DNA of 64,000 bases, taken from Gammaproteobacteria bacterium AqS3 (lineage in GTDB: Bacteria; Pseudomonadota; Gammaproteobacteria; MEIF01; AqS3). The stretch spans positions 79,322 to 143,321 of the forward strand of contig MEIF01000228.1 of the NCBI GenBank assembly GCA_001750645.1, written 5' to 3'. This document shows positions 5,069-58,555 of this stretch, piece by piece; position 1 is the first letter of the stretch; every line of letters starts with the position of its first letter. The notes under the pieces are model-generated. The model saw nothing but the letters and a program-made list of their open reading frames with translations. It searched no databases and was not told the DNA's origin. The translations under genes and the position numbers were made by a program.

Positions 5069-6139
5069 ATGACTAGTCCCCAGCGAGATCTCATTCAAAA
5101 TCTTATTGAAGGAAAAGCCTTGACAATCGCCGACTTCCCTCCGCAATCTAGGCTCAAAAATACCCAATATAGGAAAGTCTCACGGCTCATTTCCGCAGCC
5201 GGCACTTCAGAAAATATCCCAAGGAACTTTCATTCCCTCTGTAGCTTCATTGAAAAAGAAGTTCTTGCGACAGGTGAATCTAATCTCAAAGCTAGGCCCG
5301 TCAGTCGCCCTTACTTTGGAGAAACCGCGCATTACCGCCGCACCGCATCAGCTTTCATTGGAGGAAAGAATTTGATGCATCGTGATTTGAAGTTGGAAGC
5401 TTTGGAAAAATATATCCACAAACAAGCCTACTACTTGCTTCTATCAGTCTTGGCTGGGATGGAAGAAGAAAAAACCACAATGCGTCGAAGTTTCATCAAA
5501 AGCCTCATTGAAAAAGAGGCTTTAATTTTTGGTGATTTCAAGCTGAAATCTGGGCGAAAAAGTCCTTACTTTTTTAACATCGGCAACCTTAGCCAGGGAA
5601 GTTTTGTCAACGTGTTGGGGAGACAGTATGCGGAGTCGATCCAAAACGAATTTGGTTCGCAATCGGAAGGTGACACTGTTCTTTTTGGACCAGCTTACAA
5701 AGGCATTCCGCTGGTCACCGCAACCGCTATGGTGTTGGGTTGGGAAATGGCTTATGACCGCAAAGAGGAAAAAGAGCATGGTGAGGGCGGGCGCCTGTGC
5801 GGCTCGGATCTAGACGGTCGCGAGGTGATTTTGATCGATGATGTTTTGACGGCTGGGACAGCTGTTAGACACTCCGCTGAACTGATTGAAGAGGCGGGCG
5901 GAAAGCTAAAAGGAGTTGTGCTGGCCTTTGATCGTCAGGAAAAGGTGGATAAGCACTCAGGTTTCTCGGCCACGCAGAAATTACAGGAAGACTTGGATGT
6001 GGCTGTAGAGTCATTGGCATGTATGGATGATCTATTGGATTATTTGTTGAACACCAGTGAAGGCGAGGAAGCACTTCCCGATCAACAGGTGAAAAGGATG
6101 TTGCGCTACCGCGAGCGCTACGGCGTCCGGGCCGCCTAG
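5069..6139 (+). CDS. pyrE: Orotate phosphoribosyltransferase-like protein, atypical low GC, with ~140-aa N-terminal extension that duplicates the PyrE N-terminus
   Basis: C-terminal 217 aa from MRRSFIKSLIEKEALIFGDFKLKSGRKSPYFFN through FGPAYKGIPLV to VILIDDVLTAGTA is an unmistakable OPRTase, colinear with E. coli PyrE. Residues 1-25 (MTSPQRDLIQNLIEGKALTIADF) resemble the PyrE N-terminus a second time. GC roughly 43% against ~65% in the flanks. Confidence 0.7.
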   Translation: MTSPQRDLIQNLIEGKALTIADFPPQSRLKNTQYRKVSRLISAAGTSENIPRNFHSLCSFIEKEVLATGESNLKARPVSRPYFGETAHYRRTASAFIGGKNLMHRDLKLEALEKYIHKQAYYLLLSVLAGMEEEKTTMRRSFIKSLIEKEALIFGDFKLKSGRKSPYFFNIGNLSQGSFVNVLGRQYAESIQNEFGSQSEGDTVLFGPAYKGIPLVTATAMVLGWEMAYDRKEEKEHGEGGRLCGSDLDGREVILIDDVLTAGTAVRHSAELIEEAGGKLKGVVLAFDRQEKVDKHSGFSATQKLQEDLDVAVESLACMDDLLDYLLNTSEGEEALPDQQVKRMLRYRERYGVRAA

Positions 6140-50552: not shown

Positions 50553-50690
50553 CGAATGGCGGTATGCGGCTGAAGTTTGATGGGTGCGGACTTGAAATGT
50601 TGAAAGGGCATACCATATAAGGCCCAGATGAGTTGGTCGGGGCCTGGGCTTGTTCAGGTTCCGCAGTTTTGAATCATGGAGGACGCTGTT

Positions 50691-51257
50691 ATGTCTGATG
50701 ACGGTACCAAGGGCAAATTTACTGCCCGCATTAAATGTGATGATCGCGAATGCCGCGTGGCGTGCGACACACAAAACCCCGCTGTTCGAGAAATTTTGGA
50801 TAAAGCCGCAGAGAGTGACCTTCTGCGGCCGTCGGACAATATCGACGACTTTGAGCTGGTGGACGAGCAGAATGGCAGACAGATTGACGGCGATGAAGTT
50901 GACATAGCTGAAAATCCCAATTTGGTTCTTCGGCCCAAAAAGCCTGAGCTGCCGGATTCAGAAAAACCGGAAGAGACAGACAAATCGAAGCCGCCCGCCC
51001 CTCCCGTCCCGCCCTTCCAAGGGCCTTACAAATTTCAAGTCAACGGCCAGGAAATGGAAAGCGATCAGGAAAAATTGAAGGCATCGGAGATTATCCGGCT
51101 GGCTCAGGACAGGGGCTTTGCCAGTTCGGGCAAGCCGGAAGAATTCGTCCTGCAGGTGTCGGGCGAGGATAAGGAATTCAAATACGATGAAACTGTCGAT
51201 TTAAGCCGGGATAATGCTTTTCTGATCATTCCGAGAAAGCCCACCCCTGTTGCATAG
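50691..51257 (+). CDS. Tandem beta-grasp (ubiquitin-like) protein: two ~75-aa Ubl-like modules joined by a K/P/E-rich linker; no C-terminal Gly-Gly
   Basis: GGAGG RBS 8 nt before ATG 50691. Secondary-structure-like periodicity of two beta-grasp modules (KFTARIKCDD...LVLRP and YKFQVNGQEM...FLIIPRK). First gene of a coupled E2 / JAB-E1 cassette. Fold assignment is an inference. Confidence 0.4.
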   Translation: MSDDGTKGKFTARIKCDDRECRVACDTQNPAVREILDKAAESDLLRPSDNIDDFELVDEQNGRQIDGDEVDIAENPNLVLRPKKPELPDSEKPEETDKSKPPAPPVPPFQGPYKFQVNGQEMESDQEKLKASEIIRLAQDRGFASSGKPEEFVLQVSGEDKEFKYDETVDLSRDNAFLIIPRKPTPVA

Positions 51258-51649
51258 TGATGGACGAGTGCCTGGAGCGAATCTTTGAGGAACTGAAGGG
51301 TCTGGGCTATGACCCTTATTACGCGGACTGGCCGCAGGGGAAAAAGGTGGTCATCAAATACAGGATTCTCACGGGCAAATACGCCAATCAAACGGTCTTG
51401 CTGGGGGTCTCAAACCCGGATGGCCCCTATCCTGAATACCCTCCGCATTGGATTCACATTAGCCCGCTGCACGACGATGGATTGGGAGGGCCAGTAGAAA
51501 TCTATTCAAGTGAAAATGAAAAGGGGCAGACCTGTGAATGGGGCGCATTGAGCCGCCCTCCTCGCGATATTTGGGATCAGCTGCCGGAAAAAAGCATGAA
51601 GTCATTTCTTAATGAACATGTTGGCCGCTTTTGCAAAGCCCTGAAGTGA
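51257..51649 (+). CDS. Prokaryotic E2 (UBC-like) conjugating enzyme candidate
   Basis: 130 aa. HPN-like segment YPPHWIHISP followed by a conserved Cys (GQTCEWG). Start overlaps the upstream stop. Overlaps the downstream E1 gene by 19 nt. Confidence 0.5.
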   Translation: MMDECLERIFEELKGLGYDPYYADWPQGKKVVIKYRILTGKYANQTVLLGVSNPDGPYPEYPPHWIHISPLHDDGLGGPVEIYSSENEKGQTCEWGALSRPPRDIWDQLPEKSMKSFLNEHVGRFCKALK

Positions 51650-53124
51650 ATATATACGAGGCAGTCTTTTTGGGCGAGACCAATGAAGAAATATGCGCTC
51701 ACTTATTGCAGCACTTCAACAAGGGGGAGTATCAGGAGGATCTTTGCTTTGCCCTTTGGCGCCCCAGCACGGGTCAAAATCGCTACAGCGCTTTGATTTA
51801 CAAAGCCATTCTCCCCCATGAGGGTGAAAGAAACCTCCATGGAAATGTGGAGTTCAATCCAAATTATTTGTCCCGCGCCATTAACCTGGCCTGCCGGGAG
51901 GGTGCAGGACTTGCCTTTATGCACAGCCATCCGTCCGATGGCTGGCAGGCCATGAGCCAGCCGGATGTCGTCGCTGAAAAGGAGGCGATTTTTTATCCGG
52001 CACAGGCCACACAATTGCCGTTGCTGGGGTTAACGGTGGGAACCGACGGTTATTGGAGCGCTCGATTTTGGATCAGGGAGGGCAGGAAAAATCAGATTCA
52101 TTGGTGTCAAAAGGTCCGGGTGGTCGGCGAGAAAAAATATCAGCTCTACCATAACGATGCCCTTGCACCCGCTCCGAAGAGAAGAAATATCCTGCGGAGA
52201 ACTTATGACACCTGGGGGGCAGAAAAGCAGAACGATATTGCGCGTCTCAAGATCGGCGTGGTGGGCTTGGGCAGTGTCGGCTGCATTGTTGCCGAGGCGC
52301 TCGCCCGAGGCGGCATTCAGGAAATTGTTCTGATCGATCCGGATCGGGTGGAGGAGCACAATCTGGATCGGCTGCTGTATGGAACGCAGAGCGAGATCGG
52401 CCAATATAAAGTGGACGTGGCTGAGAGGCGCCTCCGGCTCAATTCCACCGCAGAGAGGGTTGCCGTTCAAAAAATCCCGCTCTCCCTCCGCGATGAGCGG
52501 GCTTATCTGGCGGCGCTGGACTGCGATCTCCTGCTGAGCTGTGTCGACCGTCCGGTTGCCAGGGATGTGCTTAATTTCATTGCCTTTGCGCATTTGATAC
52601 CGGTGATTGACGGGGGCATTGCCATTGAGCATGCGGAAAATCTGGATTCATTCTTTGCCCATTGGAGGGCGCACCTTGTCACCCCATACCACCAGTGCAT
52701 GCGCTGCAATGGCCAGTACACGACCAGTGACGTGTCTGTGGAATTGGATGGATCGCTGGACAACCCTGCCTATGTCAGCAGTCTGCCGCCCGAGGAGCGG
52801 GGCCGCAACCAGAATGTTTTTCCGTTCAGCCTGCATGTTGCAGCCATGGAAGCCGGCGCCATGTTTCGGTACTTGGTGGCGCCTGATTGGTGGCCTCCGG
52901 TTCAGCAGCAGGACTATGATTTTTTAAGGGGTACGACAACCATTCAGAACGACAAGTGCAGGCCACATTGCGTATTTCAAAATGAGCGAATTGCCCGGGG
53001 CGATGCAATCAACCCCAATCTCAAAAGCCTGATTATTCGGACAGGTGAACCAGACAGAGACGAACGGAAAAGCTGGCTCCGCGGTTTATTGTCTAAATTC
53101 ACCAGAGCTTTCGGTAAGGAATAG
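51631..53124 (+). CDS. JAB/MPN metalloprotease domain fused to E1-like (ThiF/MoeB) adenylyltransferase (TTG start)
   Basis: N-terminal JAMM motif E...HSHPS...S..D (FMHSHPSDGWQAMSQPD). C-terminal Rossmann KIGVVGLGSVGCIVAEALARGGIQEIVLIDPDRVEEHNLDR. Cys pairs CMRCNG ... CRPHC. Confidence 0.75.
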   Translation: MQSPEVNIYEAVFLGETNEEICAHLLQHFNKGEYQEDLCFALWRPSTGQNRYSALIYKAILPHEGERNLHGNVEFNPNYLSRAINLACREGAGLAFMHSHPSDGWQAMSQPDVVAEKEAIFYPAQATQLPLLGLTVGTDGYWSARFWIREGRKNQIHWCQKVRVVGEKKYQLYHNDALAPAPKRRNILRRTYDTWGAEKQNDIARLKIGVVGLGSVGCIVAEALARGGIQEIVLIDPDRVEEHNLDRLLYGTQSEIGQYKVDVAERRLRLNSTAERVAVQKIPLSLRDERAYLAALDCDLLLSCVDRPVARDVLNFIAFAHLIPVIDGGIAIEHAENLDSFFAHWRAHLVTPYHQCMRCNGQYTTSDVSVELDGSLDNPAYVSSLPPEERGRNQNVFPFSLHVAAMEAGAMFRYLVAPDWWPPVQQQDYDFLRGTTTIQNDKCRPHCVFQNERIARGDAINPNLKSLIIRTGEPDRDERKSWLRGLLSKFTRAFGKE

Positions 53125-54034
53125 AGGAGGCCACAAATCTTGGCCCTCTCAAACCTTTTTGCTTGCCCAGCTGCTCAAACAGTGTCCGCACTCTTTCCAG
53201 GTCCGGCACTCGGGGCCCGATCGTAATGATGCTTCCGCTTTGCAAAAGATTTTTGGTCTTTAGGGCATCTGTGTCAACATATTTCCTTATGTGAGATGTA
53301 GCCGGTTTATAGTCAAAGGAGTGTTCTTTCTCCCCTATATCTTGATATGGAATTAAAATTCGACTTTCTCTTTCATGCTTATAGGCGCTATCCTTGTATA
53401 AAAATCGCAAAACAACAAAATACTCCAAAATTTCTTCGATAAAGGCGTTTTTATTCTCCTCACTCAACTTATCTTTCCAATAACCCTTATATCTTTGCAG
53501 GATTCCCCCAAACTCTTCCGCGCATTTCTCGAGGGCTCTTTTTTCATAGGCTACTTTGTATATTTTTTCCGGCCTGATAATTTTAGGTAAAGCTATAGAG
53601 CAGCCCAGCCCATCCTGCCCGTATGATTGCCAATACATCAGCTCATCTTCAACACCCTTTTTTCCCCCTATGAAGGAGCATGAAAACGGGGGGTTTTTTC
53701 TGGGAGTGATTATTTCTTCGGGCAATTCATATTTTTTTTGAATTTCGTTGAGGAAATATTTTCCTTCATTGGGATCATTCGTGGCTGAAATATCGTAACA
53801 CCTTAATCCCCTGCTCTCATGGTGCGGGGGTTCATCTGTCTCGCAGGGAAGATTATTGAGCATTGAATAAACTGTTTCCATATTGGTGTAATGAACAAAA
53901 TATTCCAGACTTTCGTCAGTGTCGGTCACGAGATAATTATCAGCAAGATAATGATCTATTGACCCTCGAATCTCTGCCATCAAGGCCTTCCAATCCAGAG
54001 TGCCGGGTTCCAGCTTATTTGCCATCGTGATCAC
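53099..54034 (-). CDS. Hypothetical protein, DUF2971-like (tentative), convergent with the Ubl cassette
   Basis: Motifs FVHYTNMETVYSMLNN ... LRCYDISATNDPNEG fit my recollection of DUF2971 (HYT ... NDP.E). Same low-GC island. Confidence 0.35.
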   Translation of the reverse strand: MITMANKLEPGTLDWKALMAEIRGSIDHYLADNYLVTDTDESLEYFVHYTNMETVYSMLNNLPCETDEPPHHESRGLRCYDISATNDPNEGKYFLNEIQKKYELPEEIITPRKNPPFSCSFIGGKKGVEDELMYWQSYGQDGLGCSIALPKIIRPEKIYKVAYEKRALEKCAEEFGGILQRYKGYWKDKLSEENKNAFIEEILEYFVVLRFLYKDSAYKHERESRILIPYQDIGEKEHSFDYKPATSHIRKYVDTDALKTKNLLQSGSIITIGPRVPDLERVRTLFEQLGKQKGLRGPRFVASSIPYRKLW

Positions 54035-54092
54035 CCCAATAAAGCAAAATCAACGGCGGATTATACCGGGCATATTCGCCGCTTTGGCTGAC

Positions 54093-55259
54093 CTACCGCC
54101 CTGCCCTCAGACTCCATTTCTCGGCGCCCCATTGCAGCAGGATCAGCGCTGTGAGGACATTGCTGAAGAAGAAAAATCTCAGCGACAGATCGTGAAGCAA
54201 TACGATGTGGGCGGCGGCGAACAGCACGGCGGCCATCAGAAAACCGTTCTCGCTTTTCCAGAAATTTCCTTGGCGAAAATTCTGGATCAATTTATAGCCA
54301 ACCACTCCAAGCAAAACCAGGCGAAACAGGGTTCTGCGCCAAGCCGCAAGGATGTATTCAATGGTCCTCGCGTAGGGCGGCCAGTAATCGGAGAGCTGGG
54401 CTGAGATCGGAATGTCTCCGCCGCCGGCAAAAACACGCAGCAGCTCAGGTGTGTTATGCACGATGAATATGAAATTGAACAGGGCCAAATATCCGGGATG
54501 TTCGGAGAGGGTATTCGCCATCAAATAAGAGAGCAATGCCCCGGCATAAGCCAGATACTCCCACTTGGGCGATGCCTTTTGACTGTTTCTGACTTTGACC
54601 CAGTCGTCGCACAGCTGCCAGAGCATTAGCAGGGTGATGAAAATAATAAAATTGGTGCGAATCAATGGCAGCAGCACAATCAGAGCCAGCGCCCAATTCC
54701 GCCTTTTATTCCAGCACAGCACAATTCCCAAGGCGGCCACTGCGGCCAGCAAATCCGGGGTGGCAAGGGCGGCCACTTTGGGGAGCTGGAACACCAGCAG
54801 CGCAACCGGAAAAAGCGCGAATATGCGCCAGTTGCTGCCCAGCAGCGCCCCGCCAAACAGCAGGGCAAAAACGGCTCCGGCCAGTGCGCCAGTCAAGGCG
54901 ATGGCTGAACTGATGGTGTCGGTGAATAGCGACAGCGCCCGCACCGTCGCCAGATACAGATATCGGCCCTGATAAAACGCAACTTGGCGCTCGAAAAATT
55001 GCGGATCTTGGTGCGTCAATGTTCGGTACAAAATATCTTCTGTCAGCTCTCGCCACTTTTCATCATCAACGCTGGCCCGCACATCTGCATAAGTGGCCTC
55101 GTGCAGCTGAGCTCCGCGCGCACCCTCGAGATGCAAAATGGATGCGGTGTAGCCGATCATGTCCCAATTTTGGCGAGGATTCACCAAGCCGTTGGCCAGA
55201 ACCAGGGCGGAGAAAATCAGGATCGTCAGAGCCTGCCAGGGGTGTTGTTTGAGAATCAA
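54093..55259 (-). CDS. Polytopic inner-membrane protein, last gene of the arabinose-like operon; candidate GT-C-type arabinofuranosyltransferase (inference from position)
   Basis: ~10 predicted TM helices. 4-nt overlap with the dprE2-like gene. Occupies the aftA position of the mycobacterial Rv3789-Rv3792 cluster. Confidence 0.4.
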   Translation of the reverse strand: MILKQHPWQALTILIFSALVLANGLVNPRQNWDMIGYTASILHLEGARGAQLHEATYADVRASVDDEKWRELTEDILYRTLTHQDPQFFERQVAFYQGRYLYLATVRALSLFTDTISSAIALTGALAGAVFALLFGGALLGSNWRIFALFPVALLVFQLPKVAALATPDLLAAVAALGIVLCWNKRRNWALALIVLLPLIRTNFIIFITLLMLWQLCDDWVKVRNSQKASPKWEYLAYAGALLSYLMANTLSEHPGYLALFNFIFIVHNTPELLRVFAGGGDIPISAQLSDYWPPYARTIEYILAAWRRTLFRLVLLGVVGYKLIQNFRQGNFWKSENGFLMAAVLFAAAHIVLLHDLSLRFFFFSNVLTALILLQWGAEKWSLRAGR

Positions 55260-56011
55260 AATCGAATTCTTTTGAATAGAGCTTCAGGCAGGTGGCGCAT
55301 GATCCACATGATCGGCGCCCAAAGCTTCCCGACGTAGATCCGGTTTTTGCACCGCAGCACGCTGCGGTATATCGCCCGGCCGACCGCTTCGGGGGAGGCG
55401 GTCAACGGCTTGGGCGTTTGCAGATGGCTGATCATTTTGGTGGCGACAAATCCGGGCAGAACGGTCACAACATGCACGCCGGAACCGACCAGGCGCGCGC
55501 GCAGCCCGGACAGGAATGCGGTGAAACCGGCTTTGGCGGAACCGTAAATGTAATTGGATGCCCGTCCCCGATCACCGGCGACCGAGCTGACACCGACCAG
55601 CGCGCCGGAGCCGCGCTGTGCAAAACGTCCGGCCAACGCCTCCAGGATTTGCGCCGGCCCCTCGTAATTGGTTCGCATGATGCGGACGGCATCGGCGGGA
55701 TGGGCTTGATCATGCTCCTGGTCGCCCAGAGCGCCGACGCAGCAGATCGCAGCATCGGGCAGCTCCGGCAGGGCCTCAATAAAGCGGAGGTGGTCCGATA
55801 TGGCCAGGACATCAAATTCACACAGCGTCACTGAGACGCCGAACTGTTCTTCGAAAAACCCTCTGTTTTCCTGCAGGGTTTCGGCATTTCTGGCCGCCAG
55901 CTGCAGGTTCCAGCCGGCCCGGGCAAAAACCTCTGCGGTCGCCAGGGCGATGTTCGAGCGCGCCCCCAGCAGCAGCACGACGGGTCGGCGATCAGAGGGG
56001 TTTGAACTCAC
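55256..56011 (-). CDS. Short-chain dehydrogenase/reductase, DprE2-like
   Basis: TGxxxGxG-type Rossmann VVLLLGARSNIALATA. YxxxK region. ATGA overlap with the DprE1-like gene. Confidence 0.7.
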   Translation of the reverse strand: MSSNPSDRRPVVLLLGARSNIALATAEVFARAGWNLQLAARNAETLQENRGFFEEQFGVSVTLCEFDVLAISDHLRFIEALPELPDAAICCVGALGDQEHDQAHPADAVRIMRTNYEGPAQILEALAGRFAQRGSGALVGVSSVAGDRGRASNYIYGSAKAGFTAFLSGLRARLVGSGVHVVTVLPGFVATKMISHLQTPKPLTASPEAVGRAIYRSVLRCKNRIYVGKLWAPIMWIMRHLPEALFKRIRF

Positions 56012-57342
56012 AGCCCCAGTCGCTCCGATTGCATTGAGGAAAACCGCTCCGCCGCAGAGCAGCTGGATCGGAACTGCCGGAACGCCTCCAGCCGGTGTTC
56101 ACTCCGGGCAAACGACTGCGCACTCATGCGCGCGTCTTTGGCCAGGTAAAAATGCCCGCCGCAGGACAGCACGATTTCATCCAGCTGATTCAGCAGTTTC
56201 AGCACCCCGGGGGTCGCCGGAAAATCCAGCGCCAAGGTGTAGCCAGACATCGGAAAAGACAGGGTATTTTCGGCGCCATCTTTTTTTCCGGATCCGAAGC
56301 GCTTGAGCACGGACAAAAACGAACCCTGTCCGCTGGATGCAATGGCTTGCAGCAATTCGGCGAGTCCGGCTCGGGACTGCTCCAGCGGCAGCACACACTG
56401 AAACTGAACCAGCTTTGCGGAGCCGTACAGGCGGTTCCAGTTATGCAGCGCATCAAGCGGGTAAAAATAGCGATCCCAGTCGATCCATTGTGCCCGCCCG
56501 CCGGCGTGAAAATAAAGGGCATTGAAAGCCTTCAGCGTCAGGCGATTCAGGGTGATTTTGGGCAGATTGAACGGCACCGAAAGATGGCTCCGCCCGGGAA
56601 CATCGAAGGGCCGCCTGCCCAGCGAATCCGGCAGCTCATCTCGGCGGGCATGCTCCCCCAGAAGCAGCACCGAACGCCCCAGATGAGCTCCGCAGCCGAG
56701 GCTGTCAATCCAGGCGACCGAATAGGTGCTGTCGTCATGCGCGTCAAAGGCATCCAGAGTCTCCCCAAGGTTTTTTGAGCGAATGCATTTTTGTCGAATC
56801 CAGCCGGTTTCGACCGGCTGCAGCCTCACCGCCAGGCGCGCGATGATGCCGGTCAGCCCCATTCCGCCGAGGGTCCACTCAAACAGCCGGGGGTTTTCGC
56901 TGGGGGATGCGCGGATGAGGCGGCCATGCGCATCGATCAATTCGATCCATTCAACGAAACGGCCCAGCGAGCCGACTCGGTGATGATTTTTTCCGTGTAC
57001 ATCGGCGGCAGCCATTCCGCCCAGCGTGACAAATTTGGTCCCCGGCGTCACCGGAAAAAACCATCCATGCGGCAGAAACTGCGCAATAAGATCACCGAGC
57101 ATCGCACCGGCCTCGGCAGTGAGCAGACCGCTGTCCTGCTCAAAGCTCAGCACCCGATTCAATCGCCGCATATCGATGGTGCAGGCAGGATTGATCGCAC
57201 TGTCACCGTAGGCCCTTCCGCAGCCCCTGGCGATCAGTGAATCGCCGCTTCGGACAAGCCGGATGAGCTCTTGCTCTGATGCGGGTGCATGCACCTGGCA
57301 GTCCCACTCCTGAAAGCGACCCCAGCCATGAAGCTTGGTCAC
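56008..57342 (-). CDS. FAD-dependent oxidoreductase, DprE1-like (decaprenylphosphoryl-beta-D-ribose 2'-oxidase family)
   Basis: GWGR, RGCGRAYGDSA, VTLGGMAAADVHGKNHH. GTG start overlapping the GtrA stop (GTGA). Colinear with mycobacterial DprE1. Confidence 0.8.
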   Translation of the reverse strand: MTKLHGWGRFQEWDCQVHAPASEQELIRLVRSGDSLIARGCGRAYGDSAINPACTIDMRRLNRVLSFEQDSGLLTAEAGAMLGDLIAQFLPHGWFFPVTPGTKFVTLGGMAAADVHGKNHHRVGSLGRFVEWIELIDAHGRLIRASPSENPRLFEWTLGGMGLTGIIARLAVRLQPVETGWIRQKCIRSKNLGETLDAFDAHDDSTYSVAWIDSLGCGAHLGRSVLLLGEHARRDELPDSLGRRPFDVPGRSHLSVPFNLPKITLNRLTLKAFNALYFHAGGRAQWIDWDRYFYPLDALHNWNRLYGSAKLVQFQCVLPLEQSRAGLAELLQAIASSGQGSFLSVLKRFGSGKKDGAENTLSFPMSGYTLALDFPATPGVLKLLNQLDEIVLSCGGHFYLAKDARMSAQSFARSEHRLEAFRQFRSSCSAAERFSSMQSERLGL

Positions 57343-57746
57343 TGCACCGCCCGGGTTGTGAATACATAGTGTTTGTCGAGAAAATATTTGGTCACATATC
57401 CCGCAGCCAAGCCCAGCACGGCGCCCATTTCGCGCATGACATGCGTTCCCCAGATTGACCAAAACAGGGATTCGGTCAGCCAGAACAGCAGCGTGGGCGG
57501 GATGCCCATCGCCGAATACAGCAGGAACTTTCGGCTGTTGCCGCGCAGCGTCAGCTCGCGGTCGGAAAATATCCACCACTTGTCGAGGACAAACTTCAGA
57601 ATCAGTCCGGCGGCGGTGCCGCAGATCAGGGCTGCGATGAATCCCGGGCGGTCGGGGATGTAAAACAGCACGGCGCGCTGCGTCGCCAGATTGGCCAGCA
57701 CGGCCAGCAGGCAGAAAAGCGAATATTTCACGGCCAGAGTTGTCAA
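57339..57746 (-). CDS. GtrA-family small membrane protein (putative polyprenyl-phosphate sugar flippase), TTG start
   Basis: 135 aa, 4 TM. TTG overlaps the UbiA stop (TTGA). Same position as Rv3789 relative to dprE1. Confidence 0.6.
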   Translation of the reverse strand: MTTLAVKYSLFCLLAVLANLATQRAVLFYIPDRPGFIAALICGTAAGLILKFVLDKWWIFSDRELTLRGNSRKFLLYSAMGIPPTLLFWLTESLFWSIWGTHVMREMGAVLGLAAGYVTKYFLDKHYVFTTRAVQ

Positions 57747-58555
57747 GGCAGCGCTCCGGCCAGGCCCAGCGTACCGATGATCGCCAGGCAGATCAGGCTG
57801 GGTCGGTCGCGGATGGCAAACACCACCGGGTCGTCGTGCATCTCGCCCCTCAGCGTCAGCATCGCCAAGCGGGTAAACCAGTACAGCATCACCAGGCAAA
57901 CCCCCCAGAGCAGCTCCGGATGCGAGTACAGCAGCGTGACTTCGGGAGAATTGATGTAGAGCACCAGCACCAGAATGGCGATGTATCCCGAGGCGATGGC
58001 CACCATGGACAGGACGGGTCGGTCGCTGATCAGATAGGCTCTCCCGGGAACCTGAACCTCGCTGCGGCCGTATAAGTCGATCAATTCGGCCAGGCGCTTG
58101 AGCACCGCCAGAGCCAGAAAAATGAACATTGAAAAAGCCAGCAGCCAGAGGGAGACGTCAATCTCGCCGGCCGCACCGCCGCAAATGATGCGCAGCGTGT
58201 AGAGCAGGCTCAGTGCGGCGATGTCCAGCACCAGCTGACGCTTGATACCGCAGGAATACGAAATGGACAGCAGCGCATAGATCGCGGCGACCAGCCCGGT
58301 CGGCGTGTTGACCGAGAAGGCCAGAAGCAGGCCGGCAGCCACCAGGGACGGCGGCAGCCAGAGACCGTGTGCAATGCGCAGCTGGCCAGAGGCAAATGGT
58401 CGACCGCTCTTGCGCGGGTGGGAGCGGTCGGCGGAAAGATCCAGCAGGTCGTTGAAAAGATAAATTCCGGAGGCGATCAGGCAGAACGCTGCAAATGCCT
58501 CGAACACCGGCAGCCCCGCCGCCGGCGTCAATTGATGCCCGAGCACCATCGGCAC
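57743..58555 (-). CDS. UbiA-family prenyltransferase, DPPR-synthase-like (polyprenyl-phosphate 5-phosphoribosyltransferase)
   Basis: Asp-rich motif FNDLLDLSADRSHPRK, second motif region, 7-8 TM. N-terminus looks short; the ORF is in the same frame as the upstream HAD gene, separated only by TAG. Confidence 0.7.
   Translation of the reverse strand: MPMVLGHQLTPAAGLPVFEAFAAFCLIASGIYLFNDLLDLSADRSHPRKSGRPFASGQLRIAHGLWLPPSLVAAGLLLAFSVNTPTGLVAAIYALLSISYSCGIKRQLVLDIAALSLLYTLRIICGGAAGEIDVSLWLLAFSMFIFLALAVLKRLAELIDLYGRSEVQVPGRAYLISDRPVLSMVAIASGYIAILVLVLYINSPEVTLLYSHPELLWGVCLVMLYWFTRLAMLTLRGEMHDDPVVFAIRDRPSLICLAIIGTLGLAGALP

Follow-up and report, generated by a model that had tools for sequence, protein, structure and literature searches.

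A ubiquitin-like protein with a conserved Val-Ala end, candidate modifier of a cysteine-free, Bub-related cassette in the sponge symbiont AqS3

Type I Bub ('6E.1') operons encode BubAB, BubCD and BubE (Ye et al., bioRxiv 10.1101/2024.11.21.623953). BubAB is a fusion of a ubiquitin-like protein (Ubl) with an E2 that is cleaved by the JAB domain after a conserved Gly, G229, and BubCD, in which a JAB/JAMM peptidase is fused N-terminally to a single-domain E1, uses Y370 in place of the catalytic Cys. Back in 2006, a '6e' class had been described in which a JAB-E1 fusion occurs together with tandem Ub-like repeats and with E2s that are Cys-less and 'RWD-like', and the system reported here matches that description. 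In BilA, the Ubl of the Type I Bil operons, as many as nine variable residues come after a conserved Gly. To our knowledge, every characterised E1-activated beta-grasp modifier ends in Gly, which is taken as a near-defining rule of Ubls. Here we describe a Ubl family that departs from this rule, starting from open reading frame 1 (ORF1; 50691-51257, + strand) in a 64,000-nucleotide stretch of contig MEIF01000228.1 (the window) of Gammaproteobacteria bacterium AqS3, one of three vertically inherited symbionts of the sponge Amphimedon queenslandica. ORF1 ends in Val-Ala, and we lean, with moderate confidence, towards its being the modifier in a Ubl-conjugation cassette of four genes that is akin to the cysteine-free Bub (6E) pathways.

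ORF1 consists of 188 codons plus a TAG stop (51255-51257, by direct reading of the sequence), and the identical 188-aa product is annotated by NCBI in AqS3. A Shine-Dalgarno sequence, GGAGGA, can be read at 50678-50683 on the same strand, 7 nt 5' of the ATG at 50691, and it favours that codon over the ATG at 50676 as the start. An AlphaFold2 model built from 57 family sequences (mean predicted local distance difference test score, pLDDT, of 88.5) shows two beta-beta-alpha-beta-beta units with a low-confidence linker between them. When the model was compared to the PDB with Foldseek, the bacterial multi-ubiquitin proteins 8u38, 9d5b, 9d59 and 9cd2 ranked first and linear di-ubiquitin, ISG15 and FAT10 next, with E-values for the multi-ubiquitin, di-ubiquitin and ISG15 matches ranging from 6e-9 to 1e-5. 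ORF1 is thus a genuine two-domain protein, with a confidently predicted beta-grasp/ubiquitin-like fold. Domain 1 comprises residues 10-82 (50718-50936), as placed by the predicted secondary structure and pLDDT, a family hidden Markov model (HMM) and alignment A2. It is followed by a P/E/K-rich linker of about 30 aa (residues 83-112, 50937-51026; mean pLDDT 60-71), by domain 2 (residues 113-181, 51027-51233), which is the module common to every family member, and by the C-terminal tail R-K-P-T-P-V-A (residues 182-188, 51234-51254), directly after which the stop codon stands.

The family beta-grasp HMM matched domain 2 with 100.3 bits (residues 112-188) and domain 1 weakly but significantly (residues 25-85, independent E-value 1.3e-5). 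In the HMM alignment, domain 1 stops at ...NLVLRPKKP, whereas domain 2 runs on as ...FLIIPRKP-TPVA. Domain 1 ends without TPVA, and ORF1 is therefore an internal duplication of which only the second copy has kept the tail. The linker (KKPELPDSEKPEETDKSKPPAPPVPP, residues 84-109) is an insertion specific to ORF1, the junctions of other two-domain relatives being only 2-8 residues long. The Pfam family Multi_ubiq (PF14452) matched domain 2 only, with 19.9 bits (E 8e-4), below its 24.5-bit gathering cutoff, and 18 of 57 ORF1 family members matched it at E-values up to 0.01 (best 4.6e-8). PADLOC and NCBIfam gave no match to ORF1 or to the product of the next gene, ORF2, and PDB sequence searches gave nothing useful for either protein, for their family profiles or for the E2 profile of a broader clade. 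An earlier note, made from the letters alone, had described the product of 50691-51257 as two beta-grasp modules joined by a K/P/E-rich linker and ending in ...IPRKPTPVA without a Gly-Gly; the linker and the end are both there at exactly these coordinates, and the model, the Foldseek matches and the HMM hit on domain 1 bear out the tandem fold. A further insertion is found within domain 1, at residues 15-26 (50733-50768). It carries C16, C21 and C25 and is absent from all two-domain relatives.

The C-terminus was then compared across the family. A word-index search returned ORF1 itself alone, and an exhaustive HMMER search of 1.8 billion representatives gave 58 relatives. Nearly all of these carry a terminal or near-terminal (P/S)-T-(P/Q)-V-A, which in some of them is followed by a short unrelated tail (...PTPVAKF, ...STPVALRT, ...TQVANKPDHDRAV). 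The JAB-E1 protein of the cassette is well conserved, with thousands of homologues at about 60% identity, and 80 genome loci were fetched by means of it. They contain 87 Ubl ORFs, and a census of metagenome loci added 36. Of the 87, 78 end in Ala, 4 in Val, 3 in Ser and 1 in Thr, the single outlier being an apparently frameshifted ORF in locus L040. The stop codon directly follows the motif in 75 cases and a tail of 1-10 residues intervenes in 10; one Ubl is fused in frame to an E2, the two being joined after ...STPVA, and one, the frameshifted L040 ORF, reads through for longer. Gly was not found within the last four residues of any Ubl ORF from the genome loci (0/87) or the metagenome loci (0/36). 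In the broader clade, which was drawn from JGI metagenome contigs and in which the JAB-E1 protein is 42-50% identical, the Ubls end in ...P-T-P-V-S, the last residue being Ser in 28 and Ala in 8 of the 36. Short tails recur there as well, and three Ubl-E2 fusions have their junction after V-S. The more divergent Ubls end in ...NVS, ...KPVS or ...MPVS. Over about 180 relatives, P-T-(P/Q)-V-(A/S) is the best-conserved stretch of the Ubl, and its penultimate Val is one of the few columns conserved at 90% or more in the family alignment.

The tails and E2 fusions of the relatives begin after Val-Ala or Val-Ser, never before. The dipeptide therefore behaves as the reactive Gly does in BilA and BubAB, and this marks Val-Ala as the mature functional end; with Ala188 so marked, ORF1 would need no processing. 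By analogy, the conserved Val-Ala end is probably reactive and presumably the site of adenylation and conjugation. The earlier note had suggested that the fused JAB domain might cut the protein to expose a reactive C-terminus, or else that conjugation, if it takes place, proceeds by a non-canonical mechanism. The former, in the form of a Gly hidden before a cleavable tail, has to be given up: the last Gly of ORF1 is Gly149 (its final 39 residues, read directly from the translation, are Gly-free), a conserved Gly is missing from its homologues both close to the C-terminus and in the linker, and a removable PTPVA extension is at odds with this segment being the most conserved of all and coinciding with the stop in those 75 ORFs. 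The latter fits what was found, as the terminus is not Gly and neither the E1 nor the E2 has a catalytic cysteine. The note had also named two findings that would tell against its view. One of them, the lack of a conserved Gly, is what the homologues show; the other, a protein without the beta-grasp fold, is the opposite of what the model predicts. A Gly at the junction of domains 1 and 2 was considered as a polyubiquitin-like cleavage site and rejected, since it occurs in about half of the two-domain relatives and is absent from ORF1.

Some loci depart from the common arrangement. In L040, the Ubl ORF (5254-5841) drops the TPVA frame ('...IFITLPQRQHKWHNL...') and a TQVA motif lies in another frame; the ORF is probably the result of a frameshift, a pseudogene or an assembly error. 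Two Ubl genes with TPVA-type ends are present in L002, L007, L009, L011, L013, L025 and L071, and at least in L007 a second Ubl-E2 pair lies upstream of the JAB-E1 gene. Such paired genes imply that one E1 may serve several modifiers.

ORF2 (51260-51649, + strand) begins 2 nt past the ORF1 stop and encodes a UBC-fold E2-like protein of 129 aa, the structure of which was predicted with database homologues. It has no conserved Cys; H63, H66, D73, S98, R99 and W105 are invariant, and D106 and H120 are conserved at 97%. ORF3 (51646-53124, + strand) encodes a JAB/JAMM peptidase fused to an E1-like adenylation domain (Pfam ThiF, 6.5e-30). The order Ubl, E2, JAB-E1 is the same in 80 of 80 genome loci, with coupled stop and start codons, so that the earlier placement of ORF1 as the first gene of such a cassette is upheld; for the same reason, a homologous Ubl ORF lying directly upstream of the E2 and JAB-E1 genes each time, ORF1 is not a chance ORF. 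A broken or frameshifted BubAB fusion was also considered and rejected. ORF1 and ORF2 do not share a frame, a stop closes that of ORF2 42 nt upstream of its start codon, and the tight stop/start coupling and the separate-gene layout of 79 of the 80 genome loci contradict the idea as well.

The start of ORF3 was placed at TTG 51631 by the ORF finder, while GTG 51646, which overlaps the E2 stop as GTGA, is the probable one; the 484-aa product annotated by NCBI implies a still later start. Residue numbers used here follow the 497-aa TTG translation. The closest solved relative is Citrobacter BubCD (9ea4), which aligned with residues 24-333, that is with both domains, in a phmmer search (E 1.5e-18) and was matched by a profile search at E 5e-26. 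The JAMM residues E36, H98, H100 and D112 align with the BubCD active site, in keeping with the fused JAB domain that the earlier note had read in this gene. The tabulated JAMM and ATP-site residues are kept in at least 95% of relatives (80 sequences), and the ATP-site residues G212, G214, G217, R226, D236, D238, N244, R247, K260 and D306 are invariant in the 24-sequence alignment A1. By position count, R247 of the NLDR motif aligns with the arginine of the BubCD NLNR motif, published as R227. No Cys occurs in the crossover loop (residues 360-395) in any of 80 sequences, whereas Y381 is present in all 80 and Y363 in 79. The E1 domain is also similar to MoeB, ThiF and MccB and retains a CxxC...CxxxC Zn site as in MoeB/ThiF, and the NCBIfam ThiF and MoeB matches are far under their cutoffs (69 bits versus 266-376).

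ORF4 (53099-54034, - strand) converges on ORF3, the 3' ends of the two genes overlapping by 26 nt. Its product, a DUF2971-like protein of 311 aa, is predicted to be ADP-ribosyltransferase (ART)-like. A homologue adjoins the JAB-E1 gene in 62 of the 80 genome loci, on either strand: mostly the two genes converge, either overlapping by up to 31 nt or standing about 10-170 nt apart, and in ten loci they share a strand. This orientation-independent linkage argues for a functional association, and ORF4 appears to be a fourth component of the system, one that the earlier note does not name. Pfam DUF2971 (PF11185) was matched by 36 of 43 syntenic ORF4 relatives at E-values up to 0.1 (best 1.1e-7). 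ORF4 carries the conserved HYT, W-x-x-Y-G and Y-x-x-E-x-E-x-R motifs; within the family, Y138 and E221-x-E223 are invariant and HYT is conserved at 94% or more. A published prediction places DUF2971 among the HYE-clade ADP-ribosyltransferases, as a relative of DarT and AbiGi (PMC12522546). DUF6527/BubE, in turn, was not matched by ORF4, by ORF5 or by neighbours in related loci. Most likely, the ORF4-type protein is an effector or a regulated target of the Ubl system.

How does this cassette compare to the described systems? It shares with Type I Bub the N-terminal fusion of a JAB/JAMM domain to a single-domain E1 and a Cys-free crossover loop with an invariant Tyr. However, its Ubl and E2 are separate genes (fusions, joined after VA or VS, occur in 1 of the 80 genome loci and in a few metagenome loci), its Ubl ends in Val-Ala, or Val-Ser in the sister clade, instead of a conserved Gly, and its E2 has S-R-P where Bub has S-x-H (Ser with His at S+2, plus an Asp). 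In place of the DUF6527/BubE serine protease, which was not found in these loci, the conserved fourth gene encodes a DUF2971 ART-like protein. Sequence identity to Type I Bub is low, and ORF1 and ORF2 have no PDB sequence match at all. [quoted passage not shown] In the literature that was searched, no earlier family of Ala- or Ser-terminated Ubls and no Ubl-DUF2971 system has been described; PTPVA or PTPVS is likewise not in the supplementary tables of two Bub/Ubl preprints, which is uninformative as these tables may hold no sequences.

Other relatives are more distant. The multi-ubiquitin proteins (Ubl2/Ubl3 of Bil and Bub operons; PF14452) have tandem beta-grasps and are the top structural matches, but ORF1 scores under the Pfam cutoff, its domains are set apart by a disordered linker of 30 aa where theirs are tightly packed, and its last residue is Ala, not Gly. 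ISG15, di-ubiquitin-like proteins and Type I BilA carry, like ORF1, two beta-grasps with a reactive tail on the C-terminal domain only; they differ in their Gly-Gly or Gly terminus, their thioester E1 and E2 and their separate deubiquitinases. The Bil systems (Type I/II) have an E1 of IAD-AAD-CYS layout, an E2 with a catalytic Cys and a separate JAB deubiquitinase, whereas here the JAB domain is joined to a lone adenylation domain. BubCD resembles minimal homodimeric E1s such as UBA5. Mature UFM1, which ends in Val-Gly, has a single small residue after Val as ORF1 does, but in UFM1 this residue remains a Gly, and UBA5 and UFC1 work through catalytic cysteines. With regard to canonical Ubls (Ub, NEDD8, SUMO, SAMP, BilA, BubA), ORF1 lacks their C-terminal Gly or Gly-Gly, and it differs from the sulfur carriers of the ThiS/MoaD-ThiF/MoeB pairs, which are single beta-grasp proteins with a Gly-Gly end that belong to cofactor biosynthesis, in having E2 and JAB partners and in its non-Gly terminus. 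In Type II cyclic oligonucleotide-based antiphage signalling systems (CBASS), an E1-type enzyme, Cap2, activates a protein C-terminus that is Gly or Ala and a JAB protein, Cap3, reverses or edits the reaction, in the service of anti-phage defence (PMC10097602). The conjugated protein there is a CD-NTase (cGAS/DncV-like nucleotidyltransferase), not a Ubl, and Cap2 is an E2-E1 fusion with catalytic cysteines (PMC10097602).

The cassette, probably acquired horizontally, forms a low-GC island, at 39-55% between housekeeping genes of 60-70% GC; over 50560-54090 the values are 50-57% for ORF1-3, falling to 39% for ORF4, with 60-73% for the flanks. An M23 peptidase gene borders it on one side and a series of - strand genes on the other. 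In related loci, the neighbours include genes for TIR/SEFIR and AAA_15 proteins, a DNA methylase, AbiEii, a Pycsar effector and cyclase and a YhcG nuclease, and ImmA/CapP-like metallopeptidases flank 21 of 160 loci (4/80 genome, 17/80 metagenome); 31% of published Bub operons are associated with CapH+CapP. The closest clade (E1 52-66% identical) consists almost wholly of metagenome-assembled genomes that their names or lineages point to as sponge symbionts, from roughly ten phyla, among them Ca. Spongiihabitans, Spongiisociaceae, Entotheonella, Tectimicrobiota, Latescibacterota, Binatia, Dehalococcoidia, Caldilineaceae, Bdellovibrionales and Nitrospirales. That one clade of the cassette is shared by sponge-symbiont phyla that are unrelated suggests its horizontal transfer within sponge microbiomes. 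The sister clade (metagenome loci L089-L160, Val-Ser Ubls, E1 42-50% identical) has several Ubl-E2 fusions and no DUF2971, and its members are often flanked by CapP-like peptidases or by other genes of defence, among them Pycsar, AbiEii and a YhcG nuclease. Promoter and terminator scans were no better than those of shuffled sequence. Downstream, on the - strand (54093-58555), lies a run of ORFs whose products, judged by eye, resemble a polytopic membrane protein, a short-chain dehydrogenase and an FAD-linked oxidase, together with a GtrA-like protein and a UbiA-type prenyltransferase; they might make up a cluster for a cell-envelope glycolipid. Pfam, PADLOC and NCBIfam gave no match to the first ORF, at 54093-55259, the only one of this run that was searched.

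If ORF1 is the modifier, the following scheme may be proposed: the E1 domain of ORF3 would bind domain 2 of ORF1 and adenylate the carboxylate of Ala188; the acyl group would move as an oxyester onto a Tyr (Y381 or Y363) of the Cys-free crossover loop, and then to the invariant Ser98 of ORF2; and it would finally be transferred onto a target amine, presumably that of a Lys. Where a short tail or a fused E2 follows Val-Ala or Val-Ser, as in a minority of relatives, the JAB domain would cut it off. As most of these Ubls are made mature and no DUF6527 protease accompanies them, the JAB domain probably also reverses the conjugates. The N-terminal beta-grasp domain and the long linker of ORF1 would be accessory, providing for example bulk, oligomerisation or target binding. 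That conjugation can go through a C-terminal Ala gains support from CBASS, whose cGAS proteins naturally end in Gly or Ala and are conjugated by Cap2 in either case (PMC10097602). With the low-GC setting, and with typical defence genes and CapP-like peptidases beside related loci, the overall role is most likely anti-phage defence or a stress response.

Several points weigh against this interpretation. The scheme takes Ala adenylation, the oxyester steps, its target and its part in defence by analogy from the Bub systems of Citrobacter and E. coli. The S-R-P of ORF2 lacks the S-x-H arrangement of Type I BubB, so Ser98 is a putative catalytic residue, and the sequence alignments of ORF3 with BubCD stop before the crossover loop, so that the counterpart of Y370 may be either Y363 or Y381. 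In E. coli cGAS, changing the terminal Gly to Ser or Val abolishes conjugation (PMC10097602), and hence the Ser and Val termini of the relatives would need an E1 pocket of a different shape. ORF4 itself matches DUF2971 weakly (E 0.38, 12.6 bits versus a cutoff of 22). Protection against phage has yet to be demonstrated even for those Bub operons that are characterised. At the edges of the cassette there are no integrase, tRNA or mobility genes, a search for direct or inverted flanking repeats found nothing convincing, and a scan of viral contigs gave no relatives.

Other explanations start from the same terminus. ORF1 might be a pre-protein in which PTPVA is wholly or partly a pro-peptide, the JAB domain cutting upstream of it to expose another reactive residue. 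JAB peptidases do pre-process BilA and BubAB, and the JAB active site of ORF3 is intact. A pro-peptide, however, is expected to vary, as do the residues past the conserved Gly in BilA, whereas no segment of the family is more conserved than this tail; upstream of it there is neither a conserved Gly nor another candidate site, and the extensions and E2 fusions start after the dipeptide, not before. We therefore consider a pre-protein highly improbable. The lack of a terminal Gly can also be taken to mean that ORF1 is not conjugated at all, but is a scaffold, adaptor, regulator or substrate that binds the E1, the E2 or the DUF2971 protein, in the manner of Hub1-type or UBX/UBL-domain proteins. 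Its N-terminal domain and linker do suggest interaction functions, and Cys-less E2s of the 6e class were once read as 'inactive RWD-like'. Yet the Bub E1 and E2, which are equally Cys-free, are catalytically active; the strict free terminal dipeptide and the conservation of the E1 ATP site and the JAMM motif are hard to explain without C-terminal chemistry; the tail and fusion variants imply that the end of the Ubl must be liberated; and an adaptor or substrate role, which the earlier note had offered as an alternative, is hard to square with a terminus that is conserved just like those of Ubls. A non-conjugated ORF1 is thus unlikely, though the least so of the alternatives weighed here.

The terminus might instead be activated without any protein being tagged, as in ThiF/MoeB thiocarboxylate carriers or in peptide modification by MccB/PaaA, so that the product would be a modified Ubl or a small molecule. 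The similarity of the ORF3 E1 domain to MoeB, ThiF and MccB, its MoeB/ThiF-like Zn site and the precedent of MccB, which activates a non-Gly terminus, favour such a reading. But partners such as an E2-fold protein and a JAB peptidase typify conjugation systems, genes for a rhodanese, a sulfurtransferase or cofactor biosynthesis are missing from the cassette and its relatives, BubCD and BubB are the nearest relatives of solved structure, and the context is that of defence islands; we regard it as quite unlikely. About as improbable is that the same machinery serves host interaction or symbiont physiology in place of phage defence. The closest clade occurs almost only in genomes with sponge-symbiont names or lineages, over many phyla, and AqS3 is itself a vertically inherited sponge symbiont; on the other hand, inspection of the proteins by eye alone found no obvious secretion signal or eukaryote-targeting domain, classic defence genes neighbour the relatives, and the broader clade is found in many JGI metagenome contigs. 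Finally, with the Val-Ala/Val-Ser terminus and the linked DUF2971 (DarT-like ART) partner, there is a slim chance that the system carries out a hybrid Ubl/ADP-ribose chemistry instead of ordinary lysine tagging, or that conjugation switches an ART toxin on or off. An ester could, for example, link the Ubl carboxylate to ADP-ribose, or to DNA or protein that the ART has ADP-ribosylated; eukaryotic DELTEX E3s join Gly76 of ubiquitin to ADP-ribose.

Should ORF1 prove to be conjugated, the rule for E1 substrates would widen, and the sole known Cys-free (oxyester) ubiquitination-like chemistry would reach past the two Bub types to a Val-Ala/Val-Ser family whose species-level genomes and metagenome contigs number in the hundreds. 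A C-terminal Gly could then be dropped as a filter in searches for prokaryotic Ubls, and a Ubl pathway would be tied to a predicted DNA- or protein-ADP-ribosylating toxin. If the hybrid Ubl/ADP-ribose chemistry or the switching of an ART were true, it would amount to a new logic for bacterial immunity, widespread among sponge symbionts. The strong enrichment of one clade over unrelated sponge-symbiont phyla offers a traceable case of defence-gene sharing within a holobiont.

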